Positions 1,201 to 32,700 of a stretch of 64,000 nucleotides of DNA are shown one piece after another. Source of the stretch: Amphiscolops sp. MND2022 (Eukaryota). The DNA is taken from contig OZ076409.1 of the NCBI GenBank assembly GCA_964187785.1, positions 64,296,001-64,360,000 of the forward strand, given 5' to 3'. Below the pieces are notes generated by a model, which was not told the DNA's origin, did no database searches, and saw only the letters and a program-made list of their open reading frames with translations. Numbering within the stretch: the first letter of the stretch is position 1; every line of letters begins with the position of its first letter. The position numbers and the translations under genes were made by a program.

Positions 1201-2250
1201 TGCAAACCAAAACTATGAAAACTGTTGAGTCATGTAACTTCTGTATAATGCCATTCATTGCCTCATCGAGACTGTAAATTACAAGTAAAACGGTTAATAA
1301 TCATTAGTACTCAATGTCATTTATGATGTCCTTATGACATCAGTGGACAATACCAATACTTTCATTAGTGCAGTTTATATTGACTAATACTGCTCCCATG
1401 CGTGCATGATAATAACGTTTACATTACGTACGCATGTGCGAAGTGGAGAAATAGCGATAACCCTAAATCAGAACAAAGTAAACACGGTGTTACTATATAT
1501 AGATAGATGACCTGACGTCACCTCCACTTTGATGATGCTATAAATAGAATTACATGTAGTGTGTCATGCAAGGTGCTATTTTTAGAAGGTGACTTGACCT
1601 AAATTTGAGAGTCATGTAATCATGAGTATATATATGGTATGATCCATGAGAGGGGACACAATCTTACTAGAATGCAATAAACGTCACAACCAGATCTTGA
1701 TTATCATTTCAAATTACCAGTTATTAAATTTTCCTCTGAGAATGCCCTCTACGAGGAGCAAAAAGGCAGAAGCGAGAAGATTGAGAGAAGCAGACATAAT
1801 GTCGGATCTAGAGGACATGGATGTTATGCTGGGTTGCGGTGAGTATAATCCTATTGAAAGAGAGATAGATCAAATGACAGGTTTCTCAAACACGCTAGAT
1901 AGAGAGGAATCAAGGGAAAATTATCTCTGCAATAGGATGCTCTTCCCAAGAGAATGAAATCAGAAACATGCCTGAAAACAGGGATCATAATAATTTAGCG
2001 AGACATATAGACGTTCTAACGAACGAGGTTATTCTAAGGATTTCGAGAGAAATGGATAGTTTGTTGAATGGAGTTAATTCCCAAATAGAGATCGCCATTA
2101 GCATGGCTCTATCTGAAAGGGTTATTCCCCAAGTTCAAAACGTCATTGAGAATGTGCTGGCTAGACAGTCTGAGCGTGTCGCGACAATGTCCAGAAGACC
2201 TCACAACTCAGGTAATGATGCGCAGAAGAAGAGAGTCACAGCAAACATAT
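1201..2250 (+). mobile_element. LTR-like segment (copy 1) containing frameshifted ORF MPSTRSKKAEARR...SDLEDMDVMLG; truncated on the right
   Basis: Follows a PPT-like AAGAAGAAGG and starts with TG. TATAAATA at ~1539, AATAAA at ~1676, and motif GGGACACAATCTTACT shared with the 22.4-kb copy. ORFs 1742-1957 and 1968-2252 are similar to 22561-23179 and 31061-31279. Confidence 0.55.
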
Positions 2251-2564
2251 GAAATTATCCGAAGTGTGAAATAAAATGAAGTAAGCTAAATTTATCTATT
2301 TTTACTCAGGAGTATACTAAAGACCTCAATTTCCAAAGAAATCAGTCATAACAGTTTGCTTCCTCGGTTTTGGGCCTTTTTCAACTGAGTTCTCGATAGA
2401 CCAATAGGACTTTAGTATTCAATGAAATTATCCGGATTGTGAAATTAGGTGTGAAGAAATTAACCGGATCTACTTATTCCTACAGCTGCGTGGGACTTTC
2501 AAATTGGGTGAAAATATCCGAAGTGTGAAATTAGGCGGCTTGAAATTATCCGGATTCTACTGTA
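2250..2564. mobile_element. Right end of a Tc1/mariner(pogo/Tigger)-like MITE
   Basis: Several internal copies of GAAATTATCCG(G/A). Ends ...GGATTCTACTG|TA, i.e. TA-CAGTAGAA on the other strand. Confidence 0.4.
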
Positions 2565-3434
2565 TCGGAAATAAATCTAAAACCGTAAAGTGAATCCCCA
2601 ATGGTGTCGAAAAATAGATGTGCCTCACGTATTAAGATAGGAAATGAAATGAAATAACTAAAATCTTTTACAATATTTTATCAAAAAAATTATAAAACCA
2701 ATTTTCTTGATGTAAAAGAGTGCAATGTCTTCAGAAAAAGAAGAACTACTTGTCAAATGGACAAGTTCGAAGTTAGATGCCACATTTTACAAAATTGGCT
2801 GAAATGATGTCCCACATGCCAATTCAGTAGTAAATACAATCATTGAAAAAAGAAACTAGAAAGTTTATTCATTTTTTGCAAACCTGCTTTTCAAGTGCCC
2901 AACAAAACAGTAGAATTTGTTCGATTTTCAAATAACTGGATGATAGCTGACTTCTGAGCTGTTTTTGTTTTGGTCCAATTCTTTTTTTTTACAAATAAAG
3001 GTTCAGTTCATTTCTTACACTATTGTACTTTGCAATTAATGGTAGAATATTCGATGAAGTCTCAAACACCTGTAAAAATATAACTAACTTATGTTAAAAC
3101 CTGCAAACCTTCACGGTTTCGAAATGCCACCAATTTTTAGATGAATCTTTCAACAACTGAATAAAACGTTAAGAAATTTATCAGTTGAAAACCATGATGG
3201 CTTTCTACGAGTTCTACGAAATAATAGAAAATGTTGTTCAAAACATTGGAAAATTGTCAAAAAAATTCAAGCAGTAACAACTAGGGATGTGATTACACTA
3301 TATCGTGCCAAGGTTGCCCAATTTTCACAAATGTTAACAAGACCTCATTCCCGTCCAAAAATAACAAGAGAAAAAAGGTTTAGGTTCTTTGAGGTTAAGT
3401 CCAGACTAATCCTAAACTTTCAGTTTTGTTTCAG

Positions 3435-4689
3435 GTTTTGAACCAAATGAAAATTCTTACAACCGCCTTTTTTTCTGTTCTGGTTTTGAGCAAAAAAATC
3501 ACTCTCGTTCAGTGGCTTGCTATTGCTGTTTTGTTCTTGGGCATCGCCGAGGTGGAGCTTTCAGGAGCAAAAGAGGATTATTCACCCGCGGAAAGAGAAC
3601 AAAGCACTTTTCGGGGAGTCGTTGCTGTTCTGACTTCTAGTTTTTCATCAGGTTAACAAAAACAGCCGATTTCATTGAGATAATTAAATTGTGCTAATTT
3701 GTATGGTTAAAGATAAACAATAAATAAGGAACAAAATTGCCAACTTGAAAAAGACACAAAATGGACTGGTGAACTGAGCTGGCATTATGAAATTGATCCG
3801 AGTTTCAAAACTTGATTCACGAAGCTATCTGAAGGCGCCTGTTAGTTTTTAAAAACAAATCACAATATTCTTTCCATTTGTCCAATTTTTGAAAACCAAA
3901 TTGGCCAGGTGGACAAATGGAAAAAATTATCAAAATTCAGGGCTGTGGAAACATTATCATTACAACATCTTTGATTGTAACTCTTCATTCAACTGTGAAT
4001 TGGCACAAAAACTCCATTTAAGAAATCTGTATGGAAGGTTTATAAAACAAAACAAGAAACCACATTTTTCCATATATGCTCAGTGGTGTTTTAAAAAACT
4101 CTGGAAGTGGTGGATCCAGGTTGTGTGTGGATATAGGATCAAAATGAAGGACATACAAAATTTTTGCTGGTCAGAAAACTGGTCAAAAAATTGCTGATCT
4201 TTTCCACACAAGAAAAAGGCATTATTTTTTCTACTTCAATTGAATGAAATATCCAAATCTAACCATGAATGCTTTGATTTTCAGGTTTCGCTTGTGTTTG
4301 GTTCGAAAAAATCCTTAAGACCAAAGGACAGCCTAAAGGAATATGGTTTGCCAATATCCAACTGGCTCTTCTGTGTACAGTGCTAGGCCTTGGACTCATC
4401 TTTTGCAAAGACCGTGATTCAATAGCAATCGGCGGCTTTTTCCAGGGTTACACTTTGTGTGTTTGGGTGCTCATCTTTTTGCAGGCAGCGGGGGGTATCT
4501 TGGTATCCCTGGTGATGAAATATGCTGACAACATTCTGAAAAGCTTCGCATGCTCAGCTGCTATCGTTTTGTCTTCTATTGGATCTTTCTTTCTGTTCGA
4601 TTTCCAATTTAACCCTCTTTTTGTTTCTGGAACTGCTCTGGTCATATCCGCCATCTTTTTGTACAACAGGAAGCCATTCTCCATAAAAG
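3435..4689 (+). CDS. Nucleotide-sugar transporter, SLC35A family (partial; exons 3435-3651 and 4285-4689)
   Basis: Spliced translation VLNQMKILTTAFFSV...QWLAIAVLFLG...SSG|FACVWFEKILK...NIQLA...GFFQGY...GGILVSLVMKYADNILKSFA matches SLC35A hallmark motifs. GT-AG phase-1 intron 3652-4284 and a GTGAGT donor at 4690. No 5' exons were found in the window. Confidence 0.93.
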
Positions 4690-5406
4690 GTGAGTTTGAG
4701 ATCTTTTTAGTCGGCGCTTTGTAAATAAAACGCGACTATAATAGTGATTTTTCGTTGTATTTCTTTCAGTCCGGTCGTAGTGACCATTTTCATCCTGAAT
4801 GCCAATATTATACAATATATCTACAAAATAGCAAATTATTCCGAAGGGTCCTCCCTTTCAAGTTTTGACAAATTTATTTTAATGAAAAAAATTGAGAGTT
4901 GTTTCGTTACTATGAGTTTTCTTTCGAAGAAATTTCCATTTTCCAATTTGTTCCTTTTTGAAATTCTCCGCACTGTGGGACTTATTGGGAAAATCGAAGG
5001 TGTTTTCACCAAAGGGTTCTCGCTTTACTTTTGGATGTTTCTGGTGGGGAAGAAGGCATAGAAACGTTGTTTTTTATGTTCCTGGTGAGACGAAAAGCGG
5101 AAATCCTTTTTAAACACAAAAAGTCCTCTTTGGGATTTTTCGGGACTGTAAAACTGAGAATTAATTCGAAAGGGACTCCTTGACATCTCGGAGTATTTTT
5201 ATTCACTTTACTTCTCACCTTTTTCTTGTGTTGTGTTATGCAGTCGTTGGAGGTTCGAGTCTAGCGAACGCCGATGTGTTCACTTTTTCAAACCAAATCA
5301 TTTTGATTAGAGTTACGTTTTCAGGTATATCGCGTATATTGTTTTTCATAATGATATAACCCTGACACGACGACAAAAATAGCTTTTTTCACCGTCTTTT
5401 CTATCA

Positions 5407-8052
5407 TGTCAGGCTGAACATGGAGGTTCCAAGTTAGCCAAAGCCAAAGGGTATCTTTCAAACTGATTGGAACAGATTTTTTGAAAGAATTTTTTGATTT
5501 AAAGTTCCTGTCAGGCTGAACATGGAGGTTCCAAGTTAGCCAAAGCCAAAGGGTATCTTTCAAACTGATTGGAACAGATTTTTTGAAAGAATTTTTTGAT
5601 TTAAAGTTCCTGTCAGGCTGAACATGGAGGTTCCAAGTTAGCCAAAGCCAAAGGGTATCGCTCAACCTGATTGGAACAGATTTTTTGAAAGAATTTTTTT
5701 GATTTAAAGTTCCTGTCAGGCTGAACATGGAGGTTACATGTTGGCCAAAGCCAAATGGTATCTTTCAAACTGATTGGAACGGATTTTTTAAAAGAATTTT
5801 TTGATTTAGAGTTCCTGTCAGGCTGAACATGGAGGTTCCAAGTTAGCCAAAGCCAAAGGGTATCTTTCAAAGTGATTGGAACAGATTTTTTTAAAAAGAC
5901 TTTTTTGATTTAAAGTTCATGTCAGGCTGAACATGGAGGTTCCAAGTTAGCCAAATCCAAAGGGTATCTTTCAAAGTGATTGGAACAGATTTTTTGAAAG
6001 AATTTTTTGATTTAAAGTTCCTGTCAGGCTGAACATGGAGGTTCCAAGTTAGCCAAAGCCAAATGGTATCTTTCAAACTGATTGGAATGTTTTTTTGAAA
6101 GAATTTTCTGATTTAAAGTTCTTGTCAGGCTGAACATGGAGGTTCCATGTTGGCCAGAGCCAAAGGGTATCTTTCAAACAGATTGGAACGGATTTTTTTA
6201 AACAATTTTTTGATTCAAAGTTCCTGTCAGGCTGAACATAGAGGTTCCAAGTTAGCCAAAGCCAAAGGGTATCTTTCAAACTGATTGGAACAGATTTTTT
6301 GAACGAATTTTTTGATTTAAAGTTCCTGTCAGGCTGAACATGGAGGTTCCAAGTTAGCCAAAGCCAAAGGGTATCTTTCAAACTGATTTGAACGGATTTT
6401 TTGAAAAAAATTGATGACATAAAGTTCCTGTCAGGCTGAACATGGAAAATCCAAGTTAGCCGAAGCCAAAGGGCATCTTTCAAACTGATTGGAACGGATT
6501 TTTTTAAAAAGTTTAATTTGAAGTTCCTGTCAGGCTGAACATGGAGGTTCCAAGTTAGCCAAAGCCAAAGGGTATCTTTCAAACTAATTGGAACGGATTT
6601 TTTGAAAGAATTTTTTGATTTGAAGTTCCTGCCAGGCTGAACATGGAGGTTCCAAGTTAGCCAAAGCCAAAGGGTATCTTTCAAACTGATTGGAACAGAT
6701 TTTTTGAAAGAATTTTTTGATTTAAAGTTCCTGTCAGGCTGAACATGGAGGTTCCAAGTTAGCCAAAGCCAAAGGGTATCGTTCAAACTGATTGGAACAG
6801 ATTTTTGTAAAGAATTTTTTGATTTAAAGTTCCTGTCAGGCTGAACATGGAGGTTCCATGTTGGCCAAAGCCAAATGGTATCTTTCAAACTGATTGGAAC
6901 GGATTTTTTAAAAGAATTTTTTGATTTAAAGTTCCTGTCAGGCTGAACATGGAGGTTCCAAGTTAGCCAAAGTCAAAGGGTATCTTTCAAACTGATTGGA
7001 ACAGATTTTTTAAAAGAATTTTTTGATTTAAAATTCCTGTCAGGCTGAACATGGAGGTTCCAAGTTAGCCAAAGCCAAAGGGTGTCTTTCAAAGCGATTG
7101 GAACAGATTTTTTGAAGGAATTTGTTGATTTAAAATTCCTGTCAGGCTGAACATGGAGGTTCCAAGTTAGCCAAAGCCAAAGGGTATCTTTCAAAGCGAT
7201 TGGAACAGATTTTTTGAAAGAATTTTTTGATTAAAGTTCCTGTCAGGCTGAACATGGAGGTTCCAAGTTAGCCAAAGCCAAATGGAATCTTTCAAACTGA
7301 TTGGAACAGATTTTTTGAAAGAATTTTTTGATTTAAAGTTCCTGTCAGGCTGAACATGGAGGTTCCATGTTGGCCAGAGCCAAAGGGTATCTTTCAAACT
7401 GATTGGAACGGATTTTTTAAAACAATTTTTTGGTTCAAAGTTCCTGTCAGGCCGAACATAGAGGTTCCAAGTTAGCCAAAGCCAAAGGGTATCTTTCAAA
7501 CTAATTGGAACAGATTTTTTGAACGAATTTTTTGATTTAAAGTTCATGTCAGGCTGAACATGGAGGTTCCAAGTTAGCCAAATCCAAAGGGTATCTTTCA
7601 AACTGATTGGAACGGATTTTTTGAAAAAAATTGTTGACATAAAGTTTCTGTCAGGCTGAACATGGAAAATCCAAGTTAGCCAAAGCCAAAGGGCATCTTT
7701 CAAGCTGATTGGAACGGATTTTTCAAAAGAATTTTTTGATTTAAAGTTCCTGTCAGGCTGAACATGGAGGTTCCAAGTTAGCCAAAGCCAAAGGGTATCT
7801 TTCAAACTAATTGGAACGGATTTTTTGAAAGAATTTTTTGATTTAAAGTTCCTGCCAGGCTGAACATGGAGGTTCCAAGTTAGCCAAAGCCAAAGGGTAT
7901 CTTTCAAGCTGATTGGAACGGATTTTTCAAAAGAATTTTTTGATTTAAAGTTCCTGTCAGGCTGAACATGGAGGTTCCAAGTTAGCCAAAGCCAAAGGGT
8001 ATCTTTCAAACTGATTGGAACGGATTTTATAAAAGAATTTTTTGAATTAAAG
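5407..8052. repeat. 102-bp tandem satellite, about 26 copies
   Basis: Unit TGTCAGGCTGAACATGGAGGTTCCAAGTTAGCCAAAGCCAAAGGGTATCTTTCAAACTGATTGGAAC... starts at 5407 and 5509 and continues to ~8050. Confidence 0.98.
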
Positions 8053-8136
8053 AATAAAATATAAATACTTCGGATATAAAAATATGAAAGTCGAATATAT
8101 CGTATCTTGTTGATTCTAGACTTTCTTGACTTTCAG

Positions 8137-8198
8137 GATTTTTTATGAAGTCATTTCAAGGTTCACCTTTCTCGCTAACTGATGGTTTTACTTTTTAA
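8137..8198 (+). CDS. Candidate last coding exon of the SLC35A-like gene
   Basis: Acceptor CTTTCTTGACTTTCAG in the required phase 1, reading GFFMKSFQGSPFSLTDGFTF-stop. No homology support. Confidence 0.3.
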
Positions 8199-9169
8199 AC
8201 GCAGCTAGTAGAAACAAAATGCTCCCAGCTTTGTTTTTTTTGTGTATATAATTAAATGTTAGATTGATAATTTAGAGGAAACAGCTTTTAGAAGCTGTCA
8301 AGTACTTTAAGAATTCTGAAGCTTAAGTAGGGCTTCTTTATGACGTAAACAGAAAATAGCTTGATATTAAAATATTTATTTTACTTGTTATTACACATCA
8401 ATGTTGTTTTCCTCGTAATCCATGCTCGTTTTTCCAAAATGCTCCATTGATTTGTAAAACCGAATGATGAAAAACAGTGATGTTTGAACAGCAGTATTTT
8501 TTGTATTTTGGAAAAAAGCAGAAGCGAAGAGGAAACGAGTTCAAGTTAACGAGCACGTCGTTTCGGACTTTACGCTGCCAGAGGTATCGGAAGAAAGACT
8601 GTCTATCGACGAGGCAGTGGAGAAAAATGCAGAACAGATTGAGCCATATCAGGAGCTGTCCGACTTGAATATTATGACATTATGACAAGCAAATATTTTA
8701 TTTTCAGTTTATTGTTCTGAATGTATATATAATTCAAAGCCTATTTCATTAACAAAGGAAATTTGTCACCCATCTTTTGTAAATTCAGCTATTCTTGGGT
8801 ATTTGTAGACTGTCCCATTGGATTAACGATTTTTAGCACCAAACGCATTTTCAATCTCATATGTTGAACTTTTTTAATTTTTTGGGTCTTTTTACTCAAG
8901 AGACATATTTTTTCACAAAATAGCTGCACTGATTTATTGCTACGAAAAGGACACAACAGGGTGTGTGTTGGGTGAGTATGATTGCTTACGACCGAACCAT
9001 GAATAAACCGAGTATTTGTTATGCCAATGTTTTGAAGAGGTAAAGTTTGAAGAGGTAATTTATTGTACTCTTTTGAGCAACGTTTTAGTTCAAAAAATGT
9101 GTCTTTTGGCAACCCACTCATTGACTTCAGTACCATTTTTTCTTGCGGATCAAAATTGCATCCAATTCC

Positions 9170-11949: not shown

Positions 11950-14715
11950 TGGTGACAGGATTCCTTTCCGATTCCACAAAAATCAACAGGCAAAAAAACC
12001 ACCCGCCGAAGCAAGACGCCAATCGGATGCACTGCATTTTGACCCAACAAAGTAAAAAATTCACGAATTCATCGACACACTCCAAAAATTGCAAAAGAAC
12101 CTTTCGGCCTAGCGGTTCAACAGCTTACTACATGCGATCTATACAAAAATGCCAAATCATATCAAGAAATTATTCAACAGGTCTTATCCAGAGTTTAAAC
12201 CTAACAATGGCATAGTCTTACACTTAGAACGCGAGATGCGACTCAACGGACTAGGCACGCCAGACTAACCTAATAACTCTGTTAACGCCGCCATGTCGGA
12301 ACCAAAGCGATGACAAAACAAAAGAGCCTACTGTTTTCACTGTTGTAAATACGTCCACTATAAAGCAATGAATTACAAATGCTGTTCGGAAACCAGGGTC
12401 AAAAATGAATGTATAACTAACTTGGACACACAAAATCCCAAATGTGCTACCTGCGGAAAATCCCACAAAAGTGAAAACTGCTGGGACGGAGCCAATGCGG
12501 CGGATGAGCTCAGAAAGAAGAAAGAAAAGAGTTTTCTGCATTCCTTCAAACAAGATCAGCGAACAACCGCTCTCAACCACTGAAATTGAGCTAAAAAACT
12601 AAAATCGCCACGCCTACGATTTTGGGGAAAAGGTGGGTTTGAGGGAAAACCCGAATGATGATACTCCAAATCGCTTCGAAGAGGACCTCATTACCGAACG
12701 TAATGAAGAACCTACACAAAACTGGCAAAGACGTTGGAATGTCCAGGCAAATCTACGCAACAATGCGAAACACCGCTCCCTGAGGATTAACCAAAACCAC
12801 TCCCTGAGTGGGTGGACGAATCTCTAGGCAATTACGCCACACTAAAACGCCCTTGCCAGAATCCAAAAAAGCCGAATCTACGTCTACGACGCGGATCACC
12901 GATGCGATGCTTGGGATGAACCAGATCTACGACACCAATTCTTTACCGTTCAAAATCTACGTCCATAATCCCGCGAAAACAGAGGAAGAAATAGCAAAAC
13001 AACTGTCCCCAATTTGGAAAAAAAAACATAGGAATACCCGACACTTGCTGCCACGACAACGTCGACTTCTATGGGATGTCTCCTTGTCTACATGTCTACC
13101 TGTCTGGGCGACGATCCATCAATGCAACCCAGAATAGAAGATCAACCCACCCAACCACTCCAACCAAAAATCGAACCTGAAATTAATCAACAAACCAATT
13201 CAAACACCAACACCAATACGCAAAAAGAGCCAAACACCTTACCACTAGATATAAACGTGATACGCGATCTCATCCAACATGACAAAGACGACAGCTACAT
13301 CCCGTTAATGTCAAAAATCACACTCAGAAAGAAATGAAGAAAGTGTTTCATTCCCTTCGAGTTCAACAACGTCAAACTCGACGCGCTAGTTGACTCATGT
13401 GCGTTAATAAAGGTCATCAGTGAAATGGACAGAGAAAAGATCAGACAAGAAGCAAACCAGTGCATCACCGATACAGCGCCGCCTCAATCTTTCCAAGTTT
13501 AATATACAAATACTGAACTAGAACATGCTCTCACAACCCAACAACCTAAACGATGAAGTTCAAAACAAATGATTTGCTTCCGGAGAAACATTCATATATT
13601 GACCAAAACCTCCATACTCGATAATCGGACTGGCTTTTCTACGCAAGTACTCCACAATACTAGATACTGCACAGGGAACAATTCGGCTCCTAAAAATTCA
13701 GATCACCATCAGCCTCACTAACGAAAAGCAGTAAAAGAACCCAACGCCCTTTACAATCAAGACGGAGAGTAAACTTCGGATTCCAGCACAAGCCACCCGA
13801 ATAATCCACGCGTATAATTACGAACAACGACAAATCGGTAACTGGGACCATACAACCGGTACAACGATTTGACGAATACGCCGAGCTCAGTGTCGCCGCA
13901 GCAATAACAACAACCGGGGGCAAAGGAGTACTCATCAAAAAAACCAATACCACGGACTTTCCATTTACGATAACTCGCAACACCAAATTATCAGACCTAC
14001 GAAGTCTAAAACCAGAGGAAACAAATCCATCAGATTAAGTGACATAGCAGCTCTGAACCTACTAATCAATCACGACGACATAGTAACATACGTCATGCAC
14101 TCATGCAAGTTGCATCCTAGGACAAAAACAAAGGCAACCAATCAGAACACACACCAATACTGTAACATATCCTTAAAGAACTACGGGAACTAGCACAACT
14201 CGAAAAACTAGACCCCAATGTAAGCGAAGAATCCCGAAACAAACTCCTGTCAATGTTCAAATGGGACGACTCTCTAATCACAGGCGAAGACAGAGAAAAA
14301 TTTAAATCCATCATTGTCGAGTTCAACGACATACTCGCGAGACACAGACAAATCATCGGAATGAACACGCAATCCATGGTCACCCAAACACCAGAAGACG
14401 AGAAACCAGTTTTCCTCAGAGCCTACTAGTTCCGATCATTCTCAAGGATGACCTAACAGTGGAGCTGGTACGAATGCACTGCTGCGTCATCATAACGACA
14501 CTGCTTTTCTCGAAGTACGCCAGTCCAATCTTTGCGCAACGCAAACCCAACGGAAAGCCGAGATTGCTGGCAGACCTACATAAGATCAACGCGCTTTATC
14601 AGATTGCTACATCAAAACCAACCACCCATCAGCACCCTATTTGATGCCGCTGAGCATCTCGCATGTAAGAAACTTTTCTGCAAACTTGATTGTACTCAAG
14701 CATACCAGTGTCTTT
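11950..14715 (+). mobile_element. Decayed Gypsy/Ty3 retrotransposon (PBS, gag, protease, 5' part of RT)
   Basis: PBS-like TGGTGACAGGA at 11950. Zinc knuckle CATCGKSHKSENC (~12445-12483), protease-like LDALVDSCA (~13380), and RT motifs SKYASPIFAQRKPNGKPRLLADLHKIN and KKLFCKLDCTQAY. Many stops and frameshifts. Confidence 0.85.
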
Positions 14716-15435
14716 CACCATTGTACGGAAAATGACGAAGAAGCCATCCAAACTCATGGAAGAGATCACGAGATAATTCTGATAGAACACAGATTTATGG
14801 ACATGAATCGCCAAATTGGGGTATTGATGAGCATGGTAAAAGCCCTTACTGAAAAGATGTCTATTAGTACGGAAGAGAAAGGTCAAAGTGTCCGAAACGA
14901 TGAGACGTCACTACGTTCTGACATGGTAACAGGAGTTTCGGCGAATCCAATTCCGACTTCCAACATACAACAGCCACGCAGAACGTCCCAATCGTTCCAC
15001 AAAGCACAAATGGATGACGTCATGACGGAAATCCAGATCATCCCATCATCAATGACAGTTGGAGTATATTACCACCTAAAGAACTCCTTTACAAATTCTT
15101 TTATTCAGAGGAAATCATGTAACGAGTTCAGAGGAAGTATAACAAACTTGAACATCACAGAAGAATCACCTTAGACCTCACTTACACAAATTGACCGAGG
15201 AGCAGAAGCTGAATTTCTCCAAGAGCCTCCTCAGGGACAATGCTATTGATTTCTGGCGAAAAATTTCTCGGAAAAATACAACTGAAACAACGCTGATGGA
15301 CAGTCTGAGAGCTTTTAACAAAGAGTACGCAAACGAAGACCTCGAAAAAGTGTCGAAAAATCACTTTGACCAAATGAGGAAAGACCCAACCACGAAGTCG
15401 TACAATTTCAGAAGAACTGGTCAAAAAGTTCAAGT
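14716..15435 (+). mobile_element. Fragment of a second Gypsy-like element: LTR 3' end, PBS and gag start
   Basis: ...TCTGACA|TGGTAACAGGAGT at 14923/14924, followed by gag-like LTEEQKLNFSKSLLRDNAIDFWR...FNKEYANEDL. Confidence 0.65.
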
Positions 15436-15439
15436 CGAT

Positions 15440-18400
15440 CAATGCAAGCCTCGCAGCTGCTTGCGGCCTCGCACGGCAACCTCTCGTCGCATGAAACAAT
15501 ACATCCTCTTGACAGAAGCAAGAAATCGACGAACGAAAACTATCATCAAAACGAGAGACGTTCGCAGCAGTTGCTTTCGGGTCACGAGTATTTTCACTGT
15601 CAGTATTGGAAATTTCAAAATCTTGCGAAGAGTTCCCAGCAATATACCATGCCACCATACTGGACCAACAGCGTCGAATAATAACTACGTGGTACGAAGA
15701 ACAGGCAACAAACGAAGTTATGCGAGTCTCGAATAAGATCCATCTGAACGCTTTTAAAGGGTTAGCAACGAACAGCCTGTCGTTGGTACGACGGTGTTTG
15801 TCCGGCGAGAAAGACAGAAAGCAACAGTTTGAGGAGACGACTACATTGAATAAAGTTTCGAAACGAGACGATTGCGTCAATCAGGTGTAGAGGGTAACAA
15901 AATTCCGGAACACGGGTGCATTGTTTGGTCTTTCCGGCCAAGTCCTTGAAAAATTTAAAAGAAATCCGTGGGTCTTTTAGCCATCGTGACTCGGTTGTGA
16001 ATCTAAAAACCGGTATTCCTCTGGTGTGATCATCGGTCGGGTTCAAGGCTGTGGGAACAAAACGCCACTGAGACACAGATGAAGTTGAGAGATTGATGAA
16101 TAAACAGTTACATATCCGGCTCTCGGATGAGTTGATCCAGCAAATAACAGTAGTGTTGTCTGTCTAATTCACGATTGAATCAGAAGAAAAGTTTTGCTCG
16201 TCTCATCTAGTTTGACCCCGTTATTTGCTGACAACAGTTCGATGTTGGTGGTGGTCTTTCGTTTGATTGTTGCAACTCCCCGACTTTTTCGTAAAAAACG
16301 GGTAATTCCATATGGACTGGTTGTTTGGACGCTTCGACAAAATTTCAATTGTTTGAAATGTTGAAACTTTTGCTACTTTCTCGAATAAAGCTTTCAAATC
16401 AGGGCAGTGGACAATTCCAGTGCTTGTTTCGCTTCCAACTTTGGTCAAGAGAGGTGTGAACCATAATTTGAACAGGGACAACATACCAAGAGGTTCGAAA
16501 AAGGAAGAAACTTTCTTCAGAAGCGTTTTTTGTGTTAGTTTTATTGGAGTGTTATGAACGTTGATTAGTTGCAAAACAATAGCAATCGTCAAATGGATTT
16601 CATTATACAACTAAAACCCTGTCAGTCTCTCAATGACTTCAATGTTTGTTTTAGCAGGTGCTGAATTCGACCGCTCGGATTCCGGAAAAAGTTGGACTGC
16701 TGATTGAGTTTAAAAAGATTGGACATCCATTTCGTTGGATTGAAACTACCGGTTACTAAAAATGATTGGAGGTCTTTGCGCAATTTCTCGGGTTCTTCAA
16801 GGGTATCAGTGGTTAAATAGGAAGTCTTCAACGTTGATGTGTCGAGCCAGTCAATAGGCCATTTTGTCGTCTTCGACGCAGTCGCACTGTCGAACAGCCT
16901 AGCAAGCAGCACACGGTGAATCGTTCGCGCCCAAAACATGGCGGTTCCTTTCGTGAATTTCGTTTGGCTAAGAATATCGTAACAAACGTCTATCTGAAAT
17001 GAGTTCAGGAACTTGCATGAACATTGCTTCACTGTCAGCGGATAAGGCAACACATTTTTCACGAAAGCGCAAAACCAAACCAGTAAGATTACATAAAAAG
17101 TCTGGTCATTTGGCAAGATTAGAGTTCAGCAATTTACCTTTATAAAATGAGGGTGCGTTGGCAACTCTCCAAATTTTAACAGGTTTATTTACAATGATAA
17201 CATGGTGGCAAAGAAGACACCAAGCTTCTCTTTGATTCGCTTTTAAATCGGGTACAACAGACACAATGCCTCGTTGTGAGTCACAATAGAGGCTTTGTAA
17301 AGAGAAGTTTGTTGAGGTTTCTGTGTCAACTTGACTTCAAGTGGAGTTTTTGGCTACCCATTTGTTACATGACAGAGAGACATGGTTTTTTCAAAGTAGA
17401 ACGATTTCAAAGTACCCCTCAACAAGATTCGCAGTGTTCTTCAAGATGGAAAGCGTTTGCTGATTTTCGGCAGAGAGACTCTTTTTGCCAATCGAGATTC
17501 CAGAGCAATCAATGTGCATCCACTCTTGAACTTGGTGGAAGAAAGCGTCTTATCGAGATTGAAAATTCGTGACATTTGTGACAGCTGTTGTCGGAAGTGT
17601 CGAACGAGAGACAATTGTCCAACAAGTTTGATCGACATAGCCATGGTGTGTTGGGTGGCCCTAGACTCACAATAAGACTATGAATGAAGTCGACTTAATC
17701 TGAACTGATGAGAAGGTCGACAATTGATTGTTTAAGGTAAGGAAATGATATGTGTTTCAGGGGAGGGTACTGTCGACATAATGAAATATTGGGCGCTGAA
17801 TCAAATGTTTGGAGGTTCAAGGTAGGCACCGCCAAAACATTGCGCAACGGCATTGGCGCTGAAGCTTTGTATGGAGCATTTGTCCATCCGATTGGTTTAG
17901 CAGCAATTGTTGATGTAATAGTGACGCCTTCAAGAAGACTAGGAGGATACTCTGGTAAATGAGCCAATGAAGTTCCAGCGAATTTTTTGTTGATCAACGA
18001 CATTGAGCTGCATGTGTCCAGAAGAACGAAAACGTCTGCAGTTTTACCATTCGATAGAATTGTCACACGCTCAATTGGACGGATACCGGGGGTTAGAAGC
18101 AGCGCAGTGGACAAGGTTGTAGATTAAAACGGGTTGTTAGCTTGTCTGTTATTATGGAACAAGGTATGGTGTTTTTCATACATCCAAGGTGTTGAAATTT
18201 TTGCGGTCAATTGGAGAAAAGGCGTTGAAATACTTGCATCTCCCCAAGTAAACACAACATTTTTTCCGGACATGAACTAGTGTTTGACGATGACGGTGTG
18301 ACGAAAGGAGTTTTGGAATTGTGGCCTTCAGTTCGAGCATTTGTTGATGAGGAGGACTGCTTGTTTTCTATAGTTTCAGAGAAAAGAATAAAGCTTTCAC

Positions 18401-19680
18401 GAGATGCTGAAGCAAAGTTTTGATGCCAACGAGCACAATTTCCGAGCGAAAAGTCTTTTCAATCCAGCCTAATATCGGCCGGCAATTTTGAAAGTGAACT
18501 GGTAAGATTGACTGTAGAGAGAATATCATTGAGAAACCTCAGTTATGTGAAGGTATCCATAAAAGAAGAAATAAAATATGCATAGTTCGTATTAGAGTGA
18601 GGATCATCAGTTGATGGCTGCCTGAATGTTTTTAGACGCTGAAGGAATGACATCACAATACAATCAGGTTGGCCGTATCTTAACTTCAATATTGGTAGCG
18701 CGTACTGGTACATCGCGGGATAACAATCAAAAACTGCAATGAACCTGCAGAGAAGCGTTTGTGAATGAATTATCATCTCTGCATGGAAAATTGCAGCAAA
18801 TTCGATGAAAGCGGGAAACAGACTAAACCAATCTAACCAAGCCAAACGATCCCCGTGAACCACAGCTGGTAGAAGTTTTGTTGGTCGACGTTGTGGTTGT
18901 TGTGGTTGCACAGTATCATCTGTATTGACACGAACGGTGTTTGTCGCGCTGGTAGACGCGGGATCTCTAACGTTGACATGCGCAGAAGTGTCGAGTGACT
19001 GCATAATACCAGAAGGATTGGGCTTGATTGTTGTTTGACAATTGGCTCAAACGTGGTTTGTGAAAATGAAACGGCAGAGGTACAGCTTTAGAGTGGTCTT
19101 GTTACGGATGATGCGAAGATGATCAACATGAAATGTCGGATGGAAGGTCAGAAAATGCAGCTGCCGTTGTCAGCTGAACATTAGACATTCTACCAACATA
19201 AGAAGATTTTTACTTCTGGCCAGTGATAACTTGAAGCGTCGAATGTCGAACTTGATAGATGTCAATTTGATGAGAATTTGCCGAGCGAACCAGTTCGGCT
19301 TCAGCAACTCTTAACACCACCGTTACAGAACTTATTCTATCAAAAGCAGTGTCAGCACATCTTTGCCGAGGGATAACTAAATCGCAATTTCCTCTGATGT
19401 AACAAAATGACACTCCGGAAAGTGTTAATTTCAGAAGGCTCCGTCTCGACAGTTTGAGTTTCGGCCGAGGCGGCAACATGGGCACCTTCACCATTAGAGG
19501 GCTCACGATGACGTAAATTATAAGTTTTGAGAGTTATTGTAGAACAGTTTACTATTTTTGTTGGAAACAAGAGATGTTACCATTTTCAGATTCTAGACGA
19601 ACGATCTCTAGACGAATCTCACCCTGATTGACCCGTGCGAGTGACGCACCTTGAATGTGTCAAGGATCAAAAGTTGTCAG
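15440..19680 (-). mobile_element. Decayed BEL/Pao retrotransposon
   Basis: Gag DUF1759-like DRLAWLDWFSLF...LKLRYG (18543-19004), protease VLLDTCSSMSLI (17695-18114), Pao peptidase/RNaseH-region KTLLKKVSSFFEPLGML and QWRFVPTALNPTDDHTRG...RWLKDP. PBS-like TGATCCTTG next to ...CTGACA on the minus strand at ~19661-19680. Confidence 0.85.
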
Positions 19681-21023: not shown

Positions 21024-21899
21024 GGAGCCTCTTGATATCATTAGCTACATGAACAACGGAGACCATACTACTGATTCATGCAGGCCTTCGAGTCTCAAAT
21101 CAGACTTCGACACGAAACGTCTTTTGTGCAAATGTTCCGTTGGTCAAAAATGTAATGATTAGCTTGCAGTGCTGTCGCAGGCTGCCGCCTGTGACGGGAC
21201 TAGGGTCACAACAACCGCATAAGGACAAGAGACAGCATCTGGCACCCTTCCAATCTACTGACTGAAAGTTAACATTAGAACTTGAACCTTTTACATTAAC
21301 TCATCATTTCTCATACTTTTTTGTTTTTAATGGTGTTGCTTATTTTCTTATTTTTATACGCAAATTCTAGTCTGATAAAACTTACAATCAGAGGATTCAA
21401 ACTGAATGTTCGAAAGAATCAGAATTCGGCAGTGCACTATTATGCTTATAGTAATTGAGGCAAATAACAATGCAGCTAGACGGCGTAAAGAAAACGAGTT
21501 CAAGTGAACGAAACTCCTATTCCGGAGATGTCACTTGAGTTCGTTACTTTAGCCAATCGTAATCACTCGTTTAGTAATACTGTACCAATCTTAACTACTC
21601 GGCCGGTAAAGGCCAGATGACGTAACCTTATTCTTCATAATTGGCATTTCAGTCGAATGGCTGTTTCTGGCCGCCTTGTGCAGATTAAAAAAATTTCACT
21701 AGTTGCTTATATAATTAACCAATGCAGGCTTAGATATGTCTTTTGTGCTAGTTAAGTACCTTTTTGTGGTACTGTGCCTTTTTTAATTAAAGGGCCAAAT
21801 AATGCCGTTTGACACACTAGTGCTTTTGTTGTATGGACAAATTGGAAAGTGGACAGTTCAGACCATTTCTTGAACTTATTATCCGAATACTATGATGAA

Positions 21900-23147
21900 G
21901 GTGTTAATGTAATTTAAACGTCATGTAAATCAACATTTATGTTGGAAACATTCATAAAACCCCCGAAATTGACCTGTGCAAATTACAATAGACCAGCAAT
22001 GACGCAACAAACACCAGTCCTCGGGACTGCTCGGACTATTTCCATTCACCGACCCCATCTGCTTTATAGCCGTATAAGGCGCTATTCATCATGAGAAACA
22101 GCATGCAATGGTGTTGAATGAGTGTTGAATCTGCCTGCTTGTGTAGGCAGGTGCCAACGCTAAATACCGCAAATATTTGTTGTTAAGCAGTACGGGGATG
22201 ATAAATTGTTGATGTCATGAACTATTAATCAGGAATGTTTAGCGTTTGATCGTTAGAATAATTTGTTCAATTTGATGCTTTGATGCAATTGCCAGGTTAG
22301 CCGCTAAAGCGCAAGTCTTTATTGATGTTGCTCATGATTAATCACATGACCAGTTAGGGTCACTACCATATTATGATTTTCTTGATCGAAAAATGTAAGG
22401 AATGCGAGTGTCAGTCTTTCTGGGGTATAAATACCCACACCTCTCCTGAAAGGGACACAATTCTTACTTGCTATACTTCGATAAAGATACCTTTTCTTCA
22501 CAAACAGTTCTCTGTTAGTTTTCCGGTTCTGAATAATTCATTATTTAATCCGGTTTTTTCTTGATGCCTAATACTGGAAAACAGAAGAAAGCTAGGACGT
22601 CTAGAGGACAAGAGATGCTTTCAGATATAGAGAATCTAGACATCATGCTTGGAGAAAATCATTTTAACAGAAATGAAAGAGACATGAGCCTCAATAGTAA
22701 TCATGGTGAAAGGCCCGAGAGTGCCTTGGATGATGAAGGTGAAAACAATATTGAAAATAGGTCCTTAGACTCAAGAAATATCGGTGCTGGTATTGATGTC
22801 GATCATGCCAGAAGCTCATCTAGTGGTAACTCTAGTGCAGAAATCAACAAACTGTCGAGTGAGTTAAACAAGATTATCTAGGGAACCAGATGAAATGATG
22901 AGCAGTGTTAATACCCAAATCCAAAGGGCAATTAGTGATGCAATAAGTTGTCAGATTTTGCCTCAGATCCAGACTGTCCTAAATACCGGATCTGGTCGCT
23001 TGACACAAGATAGATGGAACGTTCCGGCCGAAAGACCGGAGGTATACTCCGAAAGGTTCTGGGCAGAGAAGACTAAAGGAAGCTCAAGAAGTGAGCCAAT
23101 CCGTGATCGTCATAAGGACGAATTCATTGATCCCTGTGCTTACGACA
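21900..23147 (+). mobile_element. Solo-LTR-like segment (copy 2) with Gag-N-like ORF MPNTGKQKKAR...SDIENLDIMLG
   Basis: TATAAATA at ~22425, GGGACACAATTCTTACT motif, ORFs 22561-22881 and 22895-23179 similar to copy 1. Ends in ...TACGACA. Left boundary is approximate. Confidence 0.55.
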
Positions 23148-23206
23148 AGTGCAACCACGGACGCTTTCGCTTGAATTAAAGCTTAACTGATCAGGTAGCT
23201 CACGGT

Positions 23207-23362
23207 CCGAAAGATGGTGATCTACGCTTGGACAGAGAGAAGCCATGCAAAAACCACGCACCGATTCTGACGTGCAAATCGATCGTCAGACCTAATCATA
23301 GGGGCGAAAGACTAATCGAACCATCTAGTAGCTTGTTTCCCCCGAAGTTTCCTTCAGGATAG
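23207..23362 (+). pseudogene. 28S (LSU) rRNA fragment, diverged and internally deleted
   Basis: Conserved eukaryotic LSU blocks CCGAAAGATGGTGA..., CTGACGTGCAAATCG..., ATAGGGGCGAAAGACTAATCGAACCATCTAGTAGCT..., CCGAAGTTTCC.TCAGGATAG. Confidence 0.92.
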
Positions 23363-25327: not shown

Positions 25328-26734
25328 TCATTCGAAGACTTTGATCTCGCACACGACCAGATTGCTTCCTTCGATGGAGATCAAGATCATGTTCCCAGTC
25401 TTGGGCGCTCTCTCTACAATGGTGCACCAGTCTTTGTCAATTGAGTTAATATTGGCATAGTGCTGACAATGGTTTGCATCATTATTGCACACTTGGATTC
25501 GGGCTCCAATTATAGACTCGCCTGTAACATCATCCGTAAGAGGTTAAACACCATCATTGGGAAAAGTGGTGATAAATACCTGATTACACGACATGACGTT
25601 GTCTCAGTTTATAAAGAACCTCATCTTGTTAAAAGTTGCTAACCGTTGCCTTTTGGAATAAGTGCTACCTTTGAGACTCGAGCAGTTCGAGAAAGATAAA
25701 ACTCAACCCATCCCTGTTTGCTGCTTTGACCAACGAAACAAAATCCTTCCTTTATTTTGTTGCTCAACGATCCATCGTAAGCATTCTGGCAATCATAATC
25801 TCCGTTTTTAGGTTTAATTCGGTCGCATCGCTTGATTGGTACAGGCTGTTGAGTGTTTCCTAAAACGAAACAGCAATATCGTTAAGTACATTTCTAATTT
25901 TTTGCTCCTTGTTCAGCTTGAATAACGGTTTTACTACAGCGTTCTACCCAACAAAATACTGTTTCATTTTGTTATTTGAACAAAAAGATCTTTTCCCGTG
26001 TCGGTCAAGTATGGAAAACTAGTTGTAACTTTCTTAGTTTACTCAGTTGTGAAGATCGATGGGTTTTGTCGAGGGTTTCTTTGGCTTGGCAGAAAAAAGA
26101 CAAAATTGCAGTGCCACTGTATTCAAGTGTAAAGTACTCACTTGTAAAGTCGGGGCATGTGGGCTCGGGTGTTGTTGTAGTTGATGTTGTGGTACTTGAC
26201 GTTGTTGTGGTCGATGTGGTGGGACTATTTATCATCAGAGATTTTGAAACGCAAACATACAGTAAAATTTTATTCAAGAACTTATATACTTTGTATTCCG
26301 AAAACAAAGCAAAAATTGCCGATTGTGTTGATTGTCCTTTACTGAGCAGCTTTAACTCAAACTTGGGAACTTTGTAGAAGTTGGTGTGTGTGGTTGTAAG
26401 ATGTCCTAGGATGTAACAACTCGTTTCAAAAGCCTTTCTGCACTAGGTTGAGACCTTACTGGAAATTCACTCCTCGAGAACAAAAATTCTAAAATTCTCA
26501 CCATGAGCATTAACCCTAGACTTCAATGGTTCTGAGTTGACACAAAGCTGAAGCAAAAACTCGAAATTCAAAACTATTATTGTACGAAATCAATGATTTT
26601 GTCCAGGTTTTACAACAATGGTATATATATAGAACTGAAATCGCCGACTGTGGAAACTTGAATGACAGAAACAAATTATTTTTATTTTCCGCCCATATTT
26701 CATATGGGAAAGGAAAATATTTAAATCAAACGGG

Positions 26735-26766
<32 letters not shown>

Positions 26767-29700
26767 ATTTGCCAAGATTTTATTTATATTTAAATTTAAG
26801 GGTGTTACCCATAGAATTCAACCCACATAAATTTAGCTTCGTGCGATATGTATTTGTAGAGATTTTTGAAGTTTTTTTAAAAAATGACGAAAATGACGAA
26901 AATGACCCCTTAATGACAAAATGACCCCGAAAATGACAAAAATTCCCAAATTTCTCATTTTTAAACATTTTTATGCAATTTTTGCCATTTTTTGAGACAC
27001 CGCGAATTAGAAAAATGGACAAGATGAATCGAAGCTTTCTTTTCTTCGAACTTCTCAGCGTTTTTATAGTGCATTAGTTATTCTTGAGCCTCAAATTTAT
27101 GTAGTTGTAGAACAGTTCGGGGCGGAAAATATCCCGCTCCTCAGCGGGCGTCTTGTTTTAATTTTCCTTACTCCAAATTGCAATAATTTTTTGAGACTTA
27201 TTCTGAAATGATTCGAGTCATTTATTAAATGTATGACCTAAAACTACTTTCTTTCTGAAATTAGTTCAAAATGGTTTCTTTTTTTTGGATTTTATGCACT
27301 CTTTTTAAATAAAACTGTGACTATTTAATATTTTTTGCTTAATATCCCTGGTTGTTGTTGTCGTTGTGGTTATAGGTGCCGGATCTCCTCTGATTTCAAC
27401 TTCGCAGAAAGCCAAGAAATAGTAGCTTCCTTGTTCTATCTGAATTTCGTTTCCTTGCAGAGGTTTACTGCACTCGAATACTGACCACTGCTTGGTTGGC
27501 ACGTCATCTGAGTAACCACCACATTGTTTGCAAGATTTCCCGTTGGTACATACCTTTACAACCACGCTGTTCATTTCCCTTGTGTCTGCAATGAAAGAAG
27601 CATTGATCATTCGAACATTTGTCCGAAAGTATTTCACATCGACTAAAAAGTTAGCAAAACGCCCAAACAGCACTAAATCTTTCAAAAAACTAATTTTAAA
27701 CCTATTTGGGTTATTTTTAAAATCAAACAACTTTTTGCAATATATTGATGGAAATCCAAATTCTTGCAAAAAATGTCCGTCGATTTTTATGAAACACCTT
27801 AGCTGACAGTTTTGGCAATGGCAAGTTTCAATAAATATATGGCTGTTAACTTTTTCTTTTATGCGAATCGCAAATCTCCTGGAAAAATTATATTGTCTAT
27901 ATTGTTAACGATCGAAATGAAAAAAAATACTTCGATTATTTTTTAGCGCCTCGAAGTTTAACTTCTCTGCAAATGATTAATCATGAACATCTTCAGAATT
28001 AATTACAGAACCAAGAATATGACTCATTCTTGGAAACTTTTTCTGAGTTCACCGGGAGTCAACTCTTGCCAGACCTTACCATAGCTTAGGAGCTTCACTT
28101 GTCGAACGAGAGACGAAGGGATGCTGAGTTTAGCGTAGGGGAAGTTTTTGGATTCGGAGTAATAACAGGTGTCTGGAGTGGGGTTCTGTCCTTGCTTCGA
28201 GTATCCAGATTCCAATCTAAAGTTGTTTCCATTGGCAGGAGACGCGGTTCCGCCCGTGGGGAAGATCTGCGAACCTGGAAATCATTTTGCTCATTTCACA
28301 TCATTCAAAAATTGCTCTTCTAGACCTGAGTTATGGAAAATTTCCAGAATTTTTTTCATAATTCCATAATAACAAGAGTTGAGTTAGTTCTCTGACGGGT
28401 TTGAGAAAAAAATTAAAGTAACTGCAACTTTTCAATAACCATTTGCATTTAGCCACTTTAGAAACTTAAGAAGAAATTCAAAATGTGCAACAACTTTCAA
28501 TGAGCTGAACTACAAAAAAACTAAGATACTGTTTTTATACCCTAGTCAGCGATTCTTACTTTTTTAAAACCTAAACTAAATATTCTAAGGGATCAAAGAA
28601 TTGCCAACCGAAATAACAGAGAGCTGACAACTACCCTAACAAAAACCAATGGCACAAAACATTTAAAATGGTGACTGCCACACTCACAGATACAGAAAAC
28701 ATGAACAATTTCAGATGAGCAACATGTTTCTATAGTTTTTGTTTGGGGAGTGAGACTGGATGTCTTATACAAGATGACAAGAGCCAAATAAAATATGAAA
28801 CCAATCCACGCAAAACAATCCAAGAACTGATCAAACTATTCAATTAGTACTATTTACCGCGAAAAATGCATACGAAAATTACCTCTGGTCAGAGACTATA
28901 AATTTTGGCGGAGACTATAAATGCAACTTCAAAGCAGTAGGACTGCTCATCTGAGAATCATTAACACAATTGAGTACACAAAAAACACCACGGAAAACCA
29001 GCGAGACGAAAAACATAGAAACAAAAACTAAGAATGAAGTGCGGCAACTGAAGGTAAAAGGTTTGGAGGAAAACATGTTCGGAAGCAACAAGATCCCACA
29101 AAAAACCAAAACTTTGTACATTCGATGCAGCAGATTTTCCACCAAATGCACCAATCTGGAGCCCCACATACAATTGTCCTGTAAAGATAGACCACTACGG
29201 TGTTATATGCAGGCAAACAAATAAATGGAAAACATAGCCGCAAGGAAATGCCGAGCTGGGCTTCGAGCACATACGCTCCATTTTATTGATGATGCGCTAG
29301 AAAACCAGCATACAAATTAAAATACGAAAATTTTGGAATTTTTCATGTATCTTTTGCAAAAACAAAACATGAAGACTATATTTTTTGAAAAAAAAATTGC
29401 GCAAAAATTTTAGATCGAGTTCTTGTTGTACAGCATATGCGCCTTTTATTAGCATGAAAGAATATTTTCGAAAAATGCTTTGAAATTTCCCAATTTTTGA
29501 TCGACCATTTCTCGGCGGAAAAAGCCGTATAGTAACGAAATTGTTAGAAATTTACGCAAAACATGCTGCTGCATCGATTATTATCCATTTTGGGTCAGTT
29601 TCAAGTTTTGCAGGTAGTGAAAATAAGGAAAATTGGCAAAAACCTCTCAAAAGATTTAGGAAAATTTTTGTTTTCTAAGCTAATAAAACAGCGAAGGCGA

Positions 29701-32700
29701 AACATTTTTCAAAATGTTTAAATGTCGATAGGAAGAGCTTTCAATTGCAAAAAATTTAGCGCAACATGATGGTTTTGCGATGAAAAGGTTTCTAGAAAAC
29801 TTTACTTTTCACAAATACTGAGGGTATGTCACGCAAAAAAACCCAATGGTTGTAAAAATGGAACAATAGAAACTTCTTGCTATATCAAAGTCTTAAAAAC
29901 GAAACATTCAATGACGTTCGTTGCTTCACTTCTCTCCGAGCGATACAGTCTACTGTCCTTGGAAGGACGAACCCCTGAAGCGGCTGAAAAACGGTGACCA
30001 CGGAAGAACCTTGGTGCACTGTTGAGAAGATAGAAAAAAGTAAAGTAACAACAAACACATCAAAATCGGGTTGACAAAAAAGGTTTTTTGACAGAACCAG
30101 ATTTACTATTAAAACTATCAGCAATTAGCATTTGTCGCAAGGTGCCGCTTGCGACAGTAATTATCATCAGGTAACCCTGATAACGATACTTCAACATCTC
30201 CCAGGAACCCTACCAATTTAGAACTGAATGGACACAAGGTCTAGGGGCTCGCGCATATGGACGAGAGCAAAATCTAGCGGCCAAACACAAACTCTAATAA
30301 TACTAGACTTTATAGTATCTTGTATCTTATTTTATAAAGTATTTAATAAGATTATATTGGTAAGCGGACTTGTACTAGTTGTACTCTTTGGTAAAATCTA
30401 TGATAGCATTGAAAAGTACTTGAATCAAAATACAAAGTAGACAGGTGTAGTTGACGCGTAATCCAAACTAAACTATTCACAAATCAAGTCGCCGCCAGTA
30501 TCACCTCTAGGGTCAAACGGACGTTATGTCCACGTTTGCATTCTTATGATGTACTTGTGCATTCTTACAGTACATGTAGCCACTTTCAATACAAGACATA
30601 TAATACGGTAGTACTGTAATTGAATTATTTNNNNNNNNNNNNNNNNNNNNNNNNNNNNNNNNNNNNNNNNNNNNNNNNNNNNNNNNNNNNNNNNNNNNNN
30701 NNNNNNNNNNNNNNNNNNNNNNNNNNNNNNNNNNNNNNNNNNNNNNNNNNNNNNNNNNNNNNNNNNNNNNNNNNNNNNNNNNNNNNNNNNNNNNNNNNNN
30801 NNNNNNNNNNNNNNNNNNNNNNNNNNNNNNTTATAATTTTTACCAGGGCTAGGCAAATGGCGTGTTTTTAGTTAGCTAATTATAGTTGTAGTGAGGCACT
30901 TTTATCCATTTTAAAAACCATGATACCCTAATTTACGGTAGTCTTAGTCCATTGAGAAAAAATATACTATTGAAGGATCATTCTATATAATCTGACACTG
31001 CAATTACCAAACTTTGTTTGTTCGTCAATAATTCAATCTTGAATCAGGAGAATTCTTGAAATGCCATCAACTAGAAAGCAAAAGGCAAGAGAAGAGCGTT
31101 CAAGGCATTCTGATGTACTGTCAGACATTGAAAATCTTGATGTAATTTTAGGAAACATTCCTGAGAACGAATTGGAAAATGACCTTGAAAACGATCCAGA
31201 TATAGAATCATCGGCAGCAGGGCTGCAAGAAAATGCTGATACTTCGAGAGGAGTTTCAGATCTTTACTTAATAAAATGATAAAATGACCTCAAAATGGCC
31301 TAAATTGAGCAAGGAAACGAATAATCTCGTTCACAACGTAAGAGATGGTTTGTCTGAACCGAATCTAACTGACAGATATAATGACAGCATTTGATGTATG
31401 AACAATATTAGACGAAATATTCATCCGTTGGATTAGGGCAGTTAGCAATGGTCTTGTCTGAATGTTTCCTAAAATGGAATTTTCAAAACAACAAGAAAAG
31501 TCTTTTATATAAATTTCACCGAGCACTTCAATTTTCAAATAAAAGTAAATAACTAGTTTGGTGAGCATTTTATAACAAATCTAATTAGCGACACCAAAGA
31601 GCGAGAACGGCAAAAAGTCCCACCGACGAAAAAGCGTAGGTAAAGAATTGGAGAACAAGACGGGCACGTCTAAAGTCAGCACCCGCTTCAGGCTCAAATT
31701 CCCAATTAAATGCTGAAAATAATCTCACGAAATTTGCAAAATTTTCAGTGGTAAAAAGGGGGATCCCTTGGTGAAATGAAAAATTTTGTTCGCGTTCAAA
31801 TAAAGTTCCGGAAGCAGAAACAAAAGGGAACGTCTCAAGTCTGCGCTCCGCTTCAGACTCAAAAATCGCAAGACTCAATGCATTTTTAAAGTAAAATACC
31901 ACAACTATAAGAGTGCCGAAAATACCCAGAGGGAGCCTTTCGTCTTCGGCAAACGCTTTCATCTACCTAAGAATATCAGGTCACATAGTGCCGAAAGCTT
32001 TGGGGGAGAACACTCTACGACGCTCTTGAAACGTATATTGCCTTAACTTGAAACATGAAAAAATCAGAAGGGGACACTTCGGTGAAAAAGTGTCTTAAAC
32101 GTTTCTTCATAAAAATTCGCCAAAGCCGGGAAAATCCTAAGTGGCATTTGGTCTCTCACAAATAGTTTCCAGGGTACGGTAAATATTATAAAAGTTCAAT
32201 AGGAGTACTCTTTAGCTTCTTTGGGTTCTTGTGTCCCTTTTAGAACTTTGACATGAAGTCTGTAAAAAGTGGACCAAATTTGTTACAAAATGCGCCGAAT
32301 AAAAACACCTCGAATCCAGATAACTAGAAAACGAACTACGAAGGTTTTAACGACTAGACTTCAAGAAAAAAGTATTACACAACCAGGTAATAGGGTCGCA
32401 CGAAACTCTGAAAACAAGCCGGACCGGCACGAGTCAGCGTCGCATCTGTGGCTTTTGTGAAGTGTTTTCGAGCTACTGGAGGCTTTTTAAGTTGAAAACA
32501 ACATAGAACATCAAAGAAAACGCTTTGATGAATTGAAAAAAATGTTGCACAGTTCTGAAAAACTCCAACAGAGGTTTCGCTCTTATGCGTTTTACACATG
32601 CTCGACCACTGAGAATGTGAGGCTGGAACAAAGAATATATGAAGCTGGTCATTGCGATAATCATATTTTTGCTTGTTTTGCAACAAGAAGTACCCACAGA

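Follow-up and report, generated by a model that had tools for sequence, protein, structure and literature searches.

The three related peptides encoded in the window (the whole 64,000-nucleotide stretch of Amphiscolops sp. MND2022 DNA that was analysed) are very probably what is left, in broken form, of the opening third of a Gag protein, a third that is encoded inside a retrotransposon's long terminal repeat (LTR), the retrotransposon being likely of the Ty3/gypsy kind. The positions of the features on which this reading is based are listed in Table 1.

Table 1. Features of the three copies, of the copy 2 LTR and of a related Gag family in the window
Feature	Position	Strand	Remark
Copy 1, purine tract	1187..1196	+	possible polypurine tract, directly after the upstream ORF; putative role
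Copy 1, candidate promoter end	1627..1681	+	TATATA 1627, shared motif 1653-1668, AATAAA 1676; putative function
Copy 1, Gag N-terminal region	1742..2252	+	74% and 59% to Gag P0330, 77% to P0412
Related Gag family, junction	14917..14933	+	..GACA followed by TGGTAACAGG, read D-M-V-T-G; DNA; outside the three-copy family
Copy 2, left target-site duplication AGTGC	21168..21172	+	exact 5 bp
Copy 2, solo LTR	21173..23147	+	1,975 bp, TGTCGCA..TACGACA; 7-nt inverted ends, one mismatch
Copy 2, candidate promoter end	22426..22485	+	TATAAA 22426, shared motif 22452-22468, GATAAA 22480; putative function
Copy 2, Gag N-terminal region	22564..23147	+	584 nt, inside the LTR; 75% and 72% to P0005
Copy 2, right target-site duplication AGTGC	23148..23152	+	no TGG primer site follows
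Copy 3, Gag N-terminus remnant	31061..31279	+	72 aa; 48% to P0332

Three decayed copies of one protein start

The peptides open with MPSTRSKK (ATG at 1742), MPNTGKQKK (ATG at 22564) and MPSTRKQK (ATG at 31061), and all three then carry SD[LI]E[DN][ML]D[VI][MI]LG. As the preliminary description had stated, the copies are closer to one another as protein than as DNA: tblastn connected all three with E values of 4e-9 to 2e-6, and blastn (word size 7, E <= 0.1) gave no cross-match among them. In a 12-codon core, the second codon positions were identical at 12/12 in all three pairs, and the third codon positions were identical at 4/12, 2/12 and 3/12, depending on the pair. All three peptides are genuine and have the look of coding sequence. 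When the six frames of the window were searched with a profile, no fourth copy emerged (the next match had an E value of 1), and a Pfam search with the three peptides gave no match.

All three copies are broken, decayed remnants. Copy 1 carries one +1 shift near 1924-1935, its first frame stops at 1957, and its likeness to the relatives ceases at 2225. Copy 2 likewise carries one +1 shift, near 22874-22880; the first frame stops at 22881, and the second frame exits the LTR and stops at 23179. Copy 3 begins 230 nt after an assembly gap (30631-30830), and its similarity fades at about 31255. Unrepaired, copies 1, 2 and 3 give products of 71, 105 and 72 aa, respectively. Copies 1 and 2 had been described as continuing into a coiled-coil-like region; the helix region is indeed present in both, but in each it lies in another frame, reached through the one +1 shift. 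Downstream of copies 1, 2 and 3, no Gag core was found. A short local repeat, GAAA[AT]TATCCG, occurs in four copies at 2251-2560, starting at the stop of the second frame of copy 1, and may have disturbed the 3' end of this copy.

The upstream signals were also compared. A TATA-like hexamer precedes each copy, at 1627 (also at 1539 and 1494), at 22426 and, as TATATA, at 30984 for copy 3, just as had been noted; since 43 of the 212 300-nt bins of the window contain such a hexamer, which is common window-wide, it says little when taken alone. The motif GGGACACAAT(T)CTTACT, earlier given as common to copies 1 and 2, was located at 1653 and 22452, and is missing from copy 3. Between the TATA-like hexamer and the ATG, a poly(A)-like hexamer is present as AATAAA at 1676 in copy 1, with the aligned GATAAA at 22480 in copy 2. 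The AATAAA before the ATG of copy 1 could cause solo-LTR transcripts to end ahead of the ORF.

The LTR of copy 2 and the junction with Gag

The 3' end of the copy 2 LTR was set first by the protein anchor (23147), and a matching 5' end was then sought. Because the ends thus obtained are of the TG..CA type and are bordered by an AGTGC duplication, copy 2 is a solo LTR whose ATG lies 584 nt inside the end. A TG..CA repeat with a target-site duplication, the mark of an LTR retrotransposon, is therefore present in the window. By composition, a 5' end like that of copy 2 together with an exact 5-bp duplication is expected 0.002 times per 3 kb; one other such site was found in 127,562 positions, which puts the chance at approximately 0.02.

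Copies 1 and 3, whose ends are not fixed, probably likewise represent parts of an LTR. For copy 1 the end candidates conflict (49..2353 versus an end at 2316), and neither end could be fixed. As a solo LTR of 49..2353, copy 1 would have perfect 7-nt inverted ends, but the duplication matches at 3/4, and the end at 2353 disagrees with the last residues of its subfamily, so that this candidate was not accepted. Judged from the sequence, copy 1 is possibly a 3' LTR that follows the purine tract, or else a longer solo LTR. In their upstream LTR parts, copies 1 and 2 had no protein similarity to each other. At 206-1188, upstream of copy 1 and reaching to the purine tract, a pair of overlapping ORFs (242 and 139 aa) had no Pfam match; the pair is likely a single broken gene, and might represent either an additional ORF of the element or a portion of a long U3. 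A 28S rRNA fragment (23208-23333; Rfam RF02543, 104 bits) lies 60 nt past the end of copy 2.

The relatives of the peptides are protein database entries, with ENA as the source in all rows that show one. With X placed at the frame shift of the query, copy 2 had 738 near-length and 209 longer relatives (788 candidates each). Copy 1 had 82 longer relatives, and its second half led to 139 cluster representatives. Two forms were distinguished among the relatives: the long forms run through M-V-T-G into a Gag of 560-575 aa that has a capsid fold and a zinc knuckle, and the short forms diverge at that point. The junction motif was present in 223 of 582 proteins, with M in 219 of the 223, and 143 proteins of 540-600 aa had the junction at residue 183-198. 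Short and long forms agree as far as a [YH][DNY]-type pair, after which the short forms continue into unrelated tails (116/117 distinct, 6.7% mean identity, median length 18 aa).

If the LTR ends in ..CA, its last A starts the next codon, and the first tail residue can then be only I, M, T, N, K, S or R. The 359 proteins in which the junction had not been recognised were examined in this respect; 193 were anchored and 166 were dropped, and after 17 missed junction forms had been reassigned, 176 anchored short forms were left. The first tail residue fitted the A-codon set in 174 of the 176. At the next four tail positions, which served as the control, the set was found in 74/166, 69/160, 60/151 and 65/144 (40-45%). 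Such a pattern is expected if the LTR ends in ..CA. In the long forms, the same A would open ATG GTN, that is, A followed by TGG, the start of a predicted primer site, and 183-198 codons of Gag likely lie inside the LTR. As DNA, this junction was seen at 14924, solely in the related Gag family of Table 1.

The claim that the LTR holds the Gag N-terminus, ahead of the predicted primer site, was thus supported by the boundaries of copy 2, the 174/176 tails and the identity of the Gag given below. The start codon of gag lies inside the LTR in copy 2, and the frame of the 143 full-length forms is open across the junction. The companion claim, that each solo LTR carries a self-contained ORF of about 190 aa, had to be given up: there is no stop inside the LTR, the tails are derived from the flank, and the three copies encode the shorter products given above. 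Lacking such a stop, a lone repeat would read on into the adjoining DNA. Scans for further loci returned a sole metagenome locus, L001 (1,162 bp), in which the junction is absent; the IMG/VR scan gave no relative, and the tRNA scan gave no tRNA.

One relative, P0126, is a mosaic, the LTR part being identical to P0136 at 196/198 residues and the internal part identical to P0153 at 371/376 residues, with the best breakpoint -2 to +9 residues from the junction. Best breakpoints within 10 aa of the junction numbered 5 of 21, compared to 1.6 expected, and no pair passed a strict threshold for the same LTR part with different internal parts. These breakpoints faintly hint that modules may be swapped at the junction by strand transfer between two RNAs.

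Identity of the Gag and a proposed mechanism

The peptide represents the N-terminus of a Gag because the long forms reach a capsid, a zinc knuckle and, in P0226, a protease. The signals for a Gag with a capsid fold and a CCHC knuckle are moderate singly, and all of them agree. Past the junction, a zinc knuckle was matched by Pfam with an E value of 0.003, which is below the cut-off, and by the MLV NC with an E value of 0.002. The top Atlas match was Arc/Ty3-capsid-like (0.95, 164 features in common), and the Atlas neighbours of the Gag were Ty3-capsid and Retrotrans_gag clusters. The capsid model was that of the relative L001, approximately 75% identical, with a mean pLDDT of 66. In a wide fold search, the best 16 matches were all retroviral or retrotransposon capsids with middling Z scores of 5.0-6.5, with a copia capsid in top position, level with others; a Foldseek search with this model returned nothing at E <= 0.001. 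The best Gag match in Pfam was DUF1759, with 17-27 bits against a cut-off of 25.4. In Ty3/gypsy elements (Metaviridae), pol runs from the protease through a gypsy-type RT and the RNase H to the integrase. An aspartyl protease is joined to the Gag in P0226. The RNase H-integrase in P0403 comes after the LTR end and possibly belongs to another element. BEL-type Gags have three knuckles. These superfamily signals, which include no RT of this family, are mixed; a Ty3/gypsy affiliation is likely.

A decayed gypsy-like element, related to this one, is located elsewhere in the window, at 11950-14700, with a primer-site-like TGGTGACAGG at 11950 and the C-terminal half of a Gag from 12005. The order of its pieces is gag, protease, dUTPase-like and RT-like (RT motifs recognised by eye), and the RT pieces had no Pfam match.

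The LTR-encoded part of the Gag comprises a basic start (mean 6.5 K+R per 14 aa), a hydrophobic motif, a linker that varies and, by prediction, a single long helix, and its most conserved residues are 1-30 and approximately 90-140. Export-signal-like spacing was observed in 340/389 of the sequences, which are related and not independent, compared to 64 in shuffles. The helix at 90-141 was the best-predicted part of the Gag (pLDDT approximately 70); the whole-Gag fold was of low confidence (mean pLDDT 42), and the best Atlas score for residues 1-195 was 0.75, at most a lead. Judged by its motifs, the LTR-encoded part likely serves as a module for the trafficking and self-association of Gag.

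We propose that transcription would start in the 5' LTR near the TATA box, and that Gag translation would begin 75-140 nt after this box, still inside the 5' LTR. The LTR end would be reached after 183-198 codons, and the frame would then continue over the primer site, read as M-V-T-G, into the capsid and the zinc knuckle. Reverse transcription would copy the coding stretch, likely U5, into both LTRs, so that the 3' LTR and solo LTRs would hold the same stopless frame with a tail made by the flank. Since a poly(A)-like hexamer lies between the TATA box and the ATG, R would be short and U5 would be long and coding, with a putative R/U5 position; the minus-strand strong-stop copy would then be about 700 nt long, and would also be coding. 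The solo copies are likely decaying by-products of this process.

Known elements, alternative readings and the fate of solo LTRs

Protein-coding frames in a terminal repeat are known from MMTV sag and HIV nef, both of which are located in U3 and carry a stop of their own. The frame described here likewise lies within the terminal repeat; however, it is the start of Gag, is likely in U5 and is open-ended. The layout in which gag starts in the LTR is itself already known, because Ty1 has it, with about a dozen codons ahead of the primer site. In the available excerpts on this Saccharomyces cerevisiae element of the Ty1/copia group, the primer site is placed within the GAG frame, at nt 94-104 of the RNA (PMC4974528), and the Gag is given a disordered N-terminal region before the capsid, which is required for transposition (PMC10372613). 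The present element resembles Ty1, as far as these excerpts go, in the primer site within the Gag frame and in the N-terminal region ahead of the capsid. It differs, on the same excerpts, in having 183-198 codons before the primer site and not at most about 30, and it is likely of the Ty3/gypsy and not the Ty1/copia kind. The difference from Ty1 is one of scale: a few codons there, a third of Gag here.

With the Gags of the Ty3/gypsy group (Ty3, Arc, PNMA2-type capsid), the element shares the capsid fold, the CCHC knuckle, the 5-bp duplication and the protease that comes next. Most Ty3/gypsy Gags start with the capsid domain, according to the accessible part of PMC10309623, whereas approximately 270 residues lie ahead of the capsid here, approximately 190 of them inside the LTR. 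The same part of that source describes for the GAG/CERV of Cer1 (C. elegans, Ty3/gypsy) a large N-terminal domain before the capsid, with a predicted leucine zipper and nuclear localisation and export motifs. The predicted motif set before the capsid is comparable in the two elements, compared by description and not by sequence; however, the primer site of Cer1 adjoins the 5' LTR in that account, which mentions no start of the frame inside the LTR (PMC10309623). An exact-phrase search of open papers yielded no description of the family or of an LTR Gag segment this long, and the accessible part of a paper on Tor elements (PMC4402516) held nothing that bears on a Gag-in-LTR layout.

In most LTR elements, gag is internal and lies behind the primer site. 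It is this usual build, together with the lack of a two-LTR element among the sequences read, that would favour taking the frame for an ordinary internal gag and the short forms for truncated elements. Nevertheless, truncation would not halt at one base in 174/176 cases, the TG..CA ends and the duplication of copy 2 enclose the frame, and a Gag core follows none of the three copies, which makes this explanation highly unlikely. One might also consider a host gene family, or a Penelope-, DIRS- or LINE-like element without LTRs, in which a first exon recurs or a terminal repeat is present, the LTR-encoded part being without a Pfam family and without an Atlas look-alike above 0.75. However, the long forms reach a capsid, a zinc knuckle and an aspartyl protease (P0226), and a 5-bp duplication flanks the LTR termini of copy 2; such an origin is extremely unlikely.

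With the peptides read as the LTR-encoded start of Gag, a further question concerns the fate of the frames in lone repeats. Solo and 3' LTRs might be transcribed and translated, the module then serving as a dominant-negative brake on the element or tagging the N-terminus of frames next to it. The start motif is in frame in 130/176 anchored short forms, hundreds of frames are open, and four short forms have tails longer than 100 aa. Furthermore, gene calls join the LTR frame to a C-type-lectin-like frame in P0158 (Pfam E 0.009, below the cut-off), to the Gag of another family in P0377, and to RNase H and integrase in P0403. In Ty1, a truncated Gag, p22, is a restriction factor, although it is a different part of Gag, according to the portion of PMC4551931 at hand. 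All three copies in the window are broken, however, and none of them is thus the intact, expressed and selected gene that a domesticated LTR would be. The protein database favours open frames, young insertions are open anyway, and in-frame joins are expected by chance because there are so many insertions. Moreover, selection on Gag in full elements already explains the conservation, and a poly(A)-like signal may precede the ATG. Use of the module in this manner is unlikely. It is similarly improbable that each solo LTR of this very abundant family would pair a promoter with a nuclear-trafficking and coiled-coil tag which, being open-ended, becomes joined to adjacent frames (a lectin-like one in P0158), or would encode a brake on the element acting in trans, with strand transfer swapping the whole module between subfamilies in one step.

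The layout places a strongly selected protein frame in every solo LTR. Gene callers would make hundreds of orphan 'genes' of about 200 aa from such LTRs, and LTR annotators would misplace the start of gag. If solo LTRs were translated, the family would be a ready source of chimeric proteins.

The window also contains a related Gag family (14641-15394), with the junction at 14924, a Gag core at 15188-15394 and a different upstream peptide. The LTR-to-Gag layout may be common to several families in the genome. By its appearance the window belongs to a repeat-rich animal genome and may resemble that of an acoel; LTR elements dominate in an acoel, according to the available part of PMC9911081. A BEL/Pao-like relic, recognised by eye, lies at 15760-19500 (minus strand), and its ORF pieces had no Pfam match. 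Additionally, the window includes a 102-bp satellite with approximately 28 copies (5289-8136), a nucleotide-sugar transporter piece (4278-4724) and a MULE transposase piece (42320-42736, minus strand).
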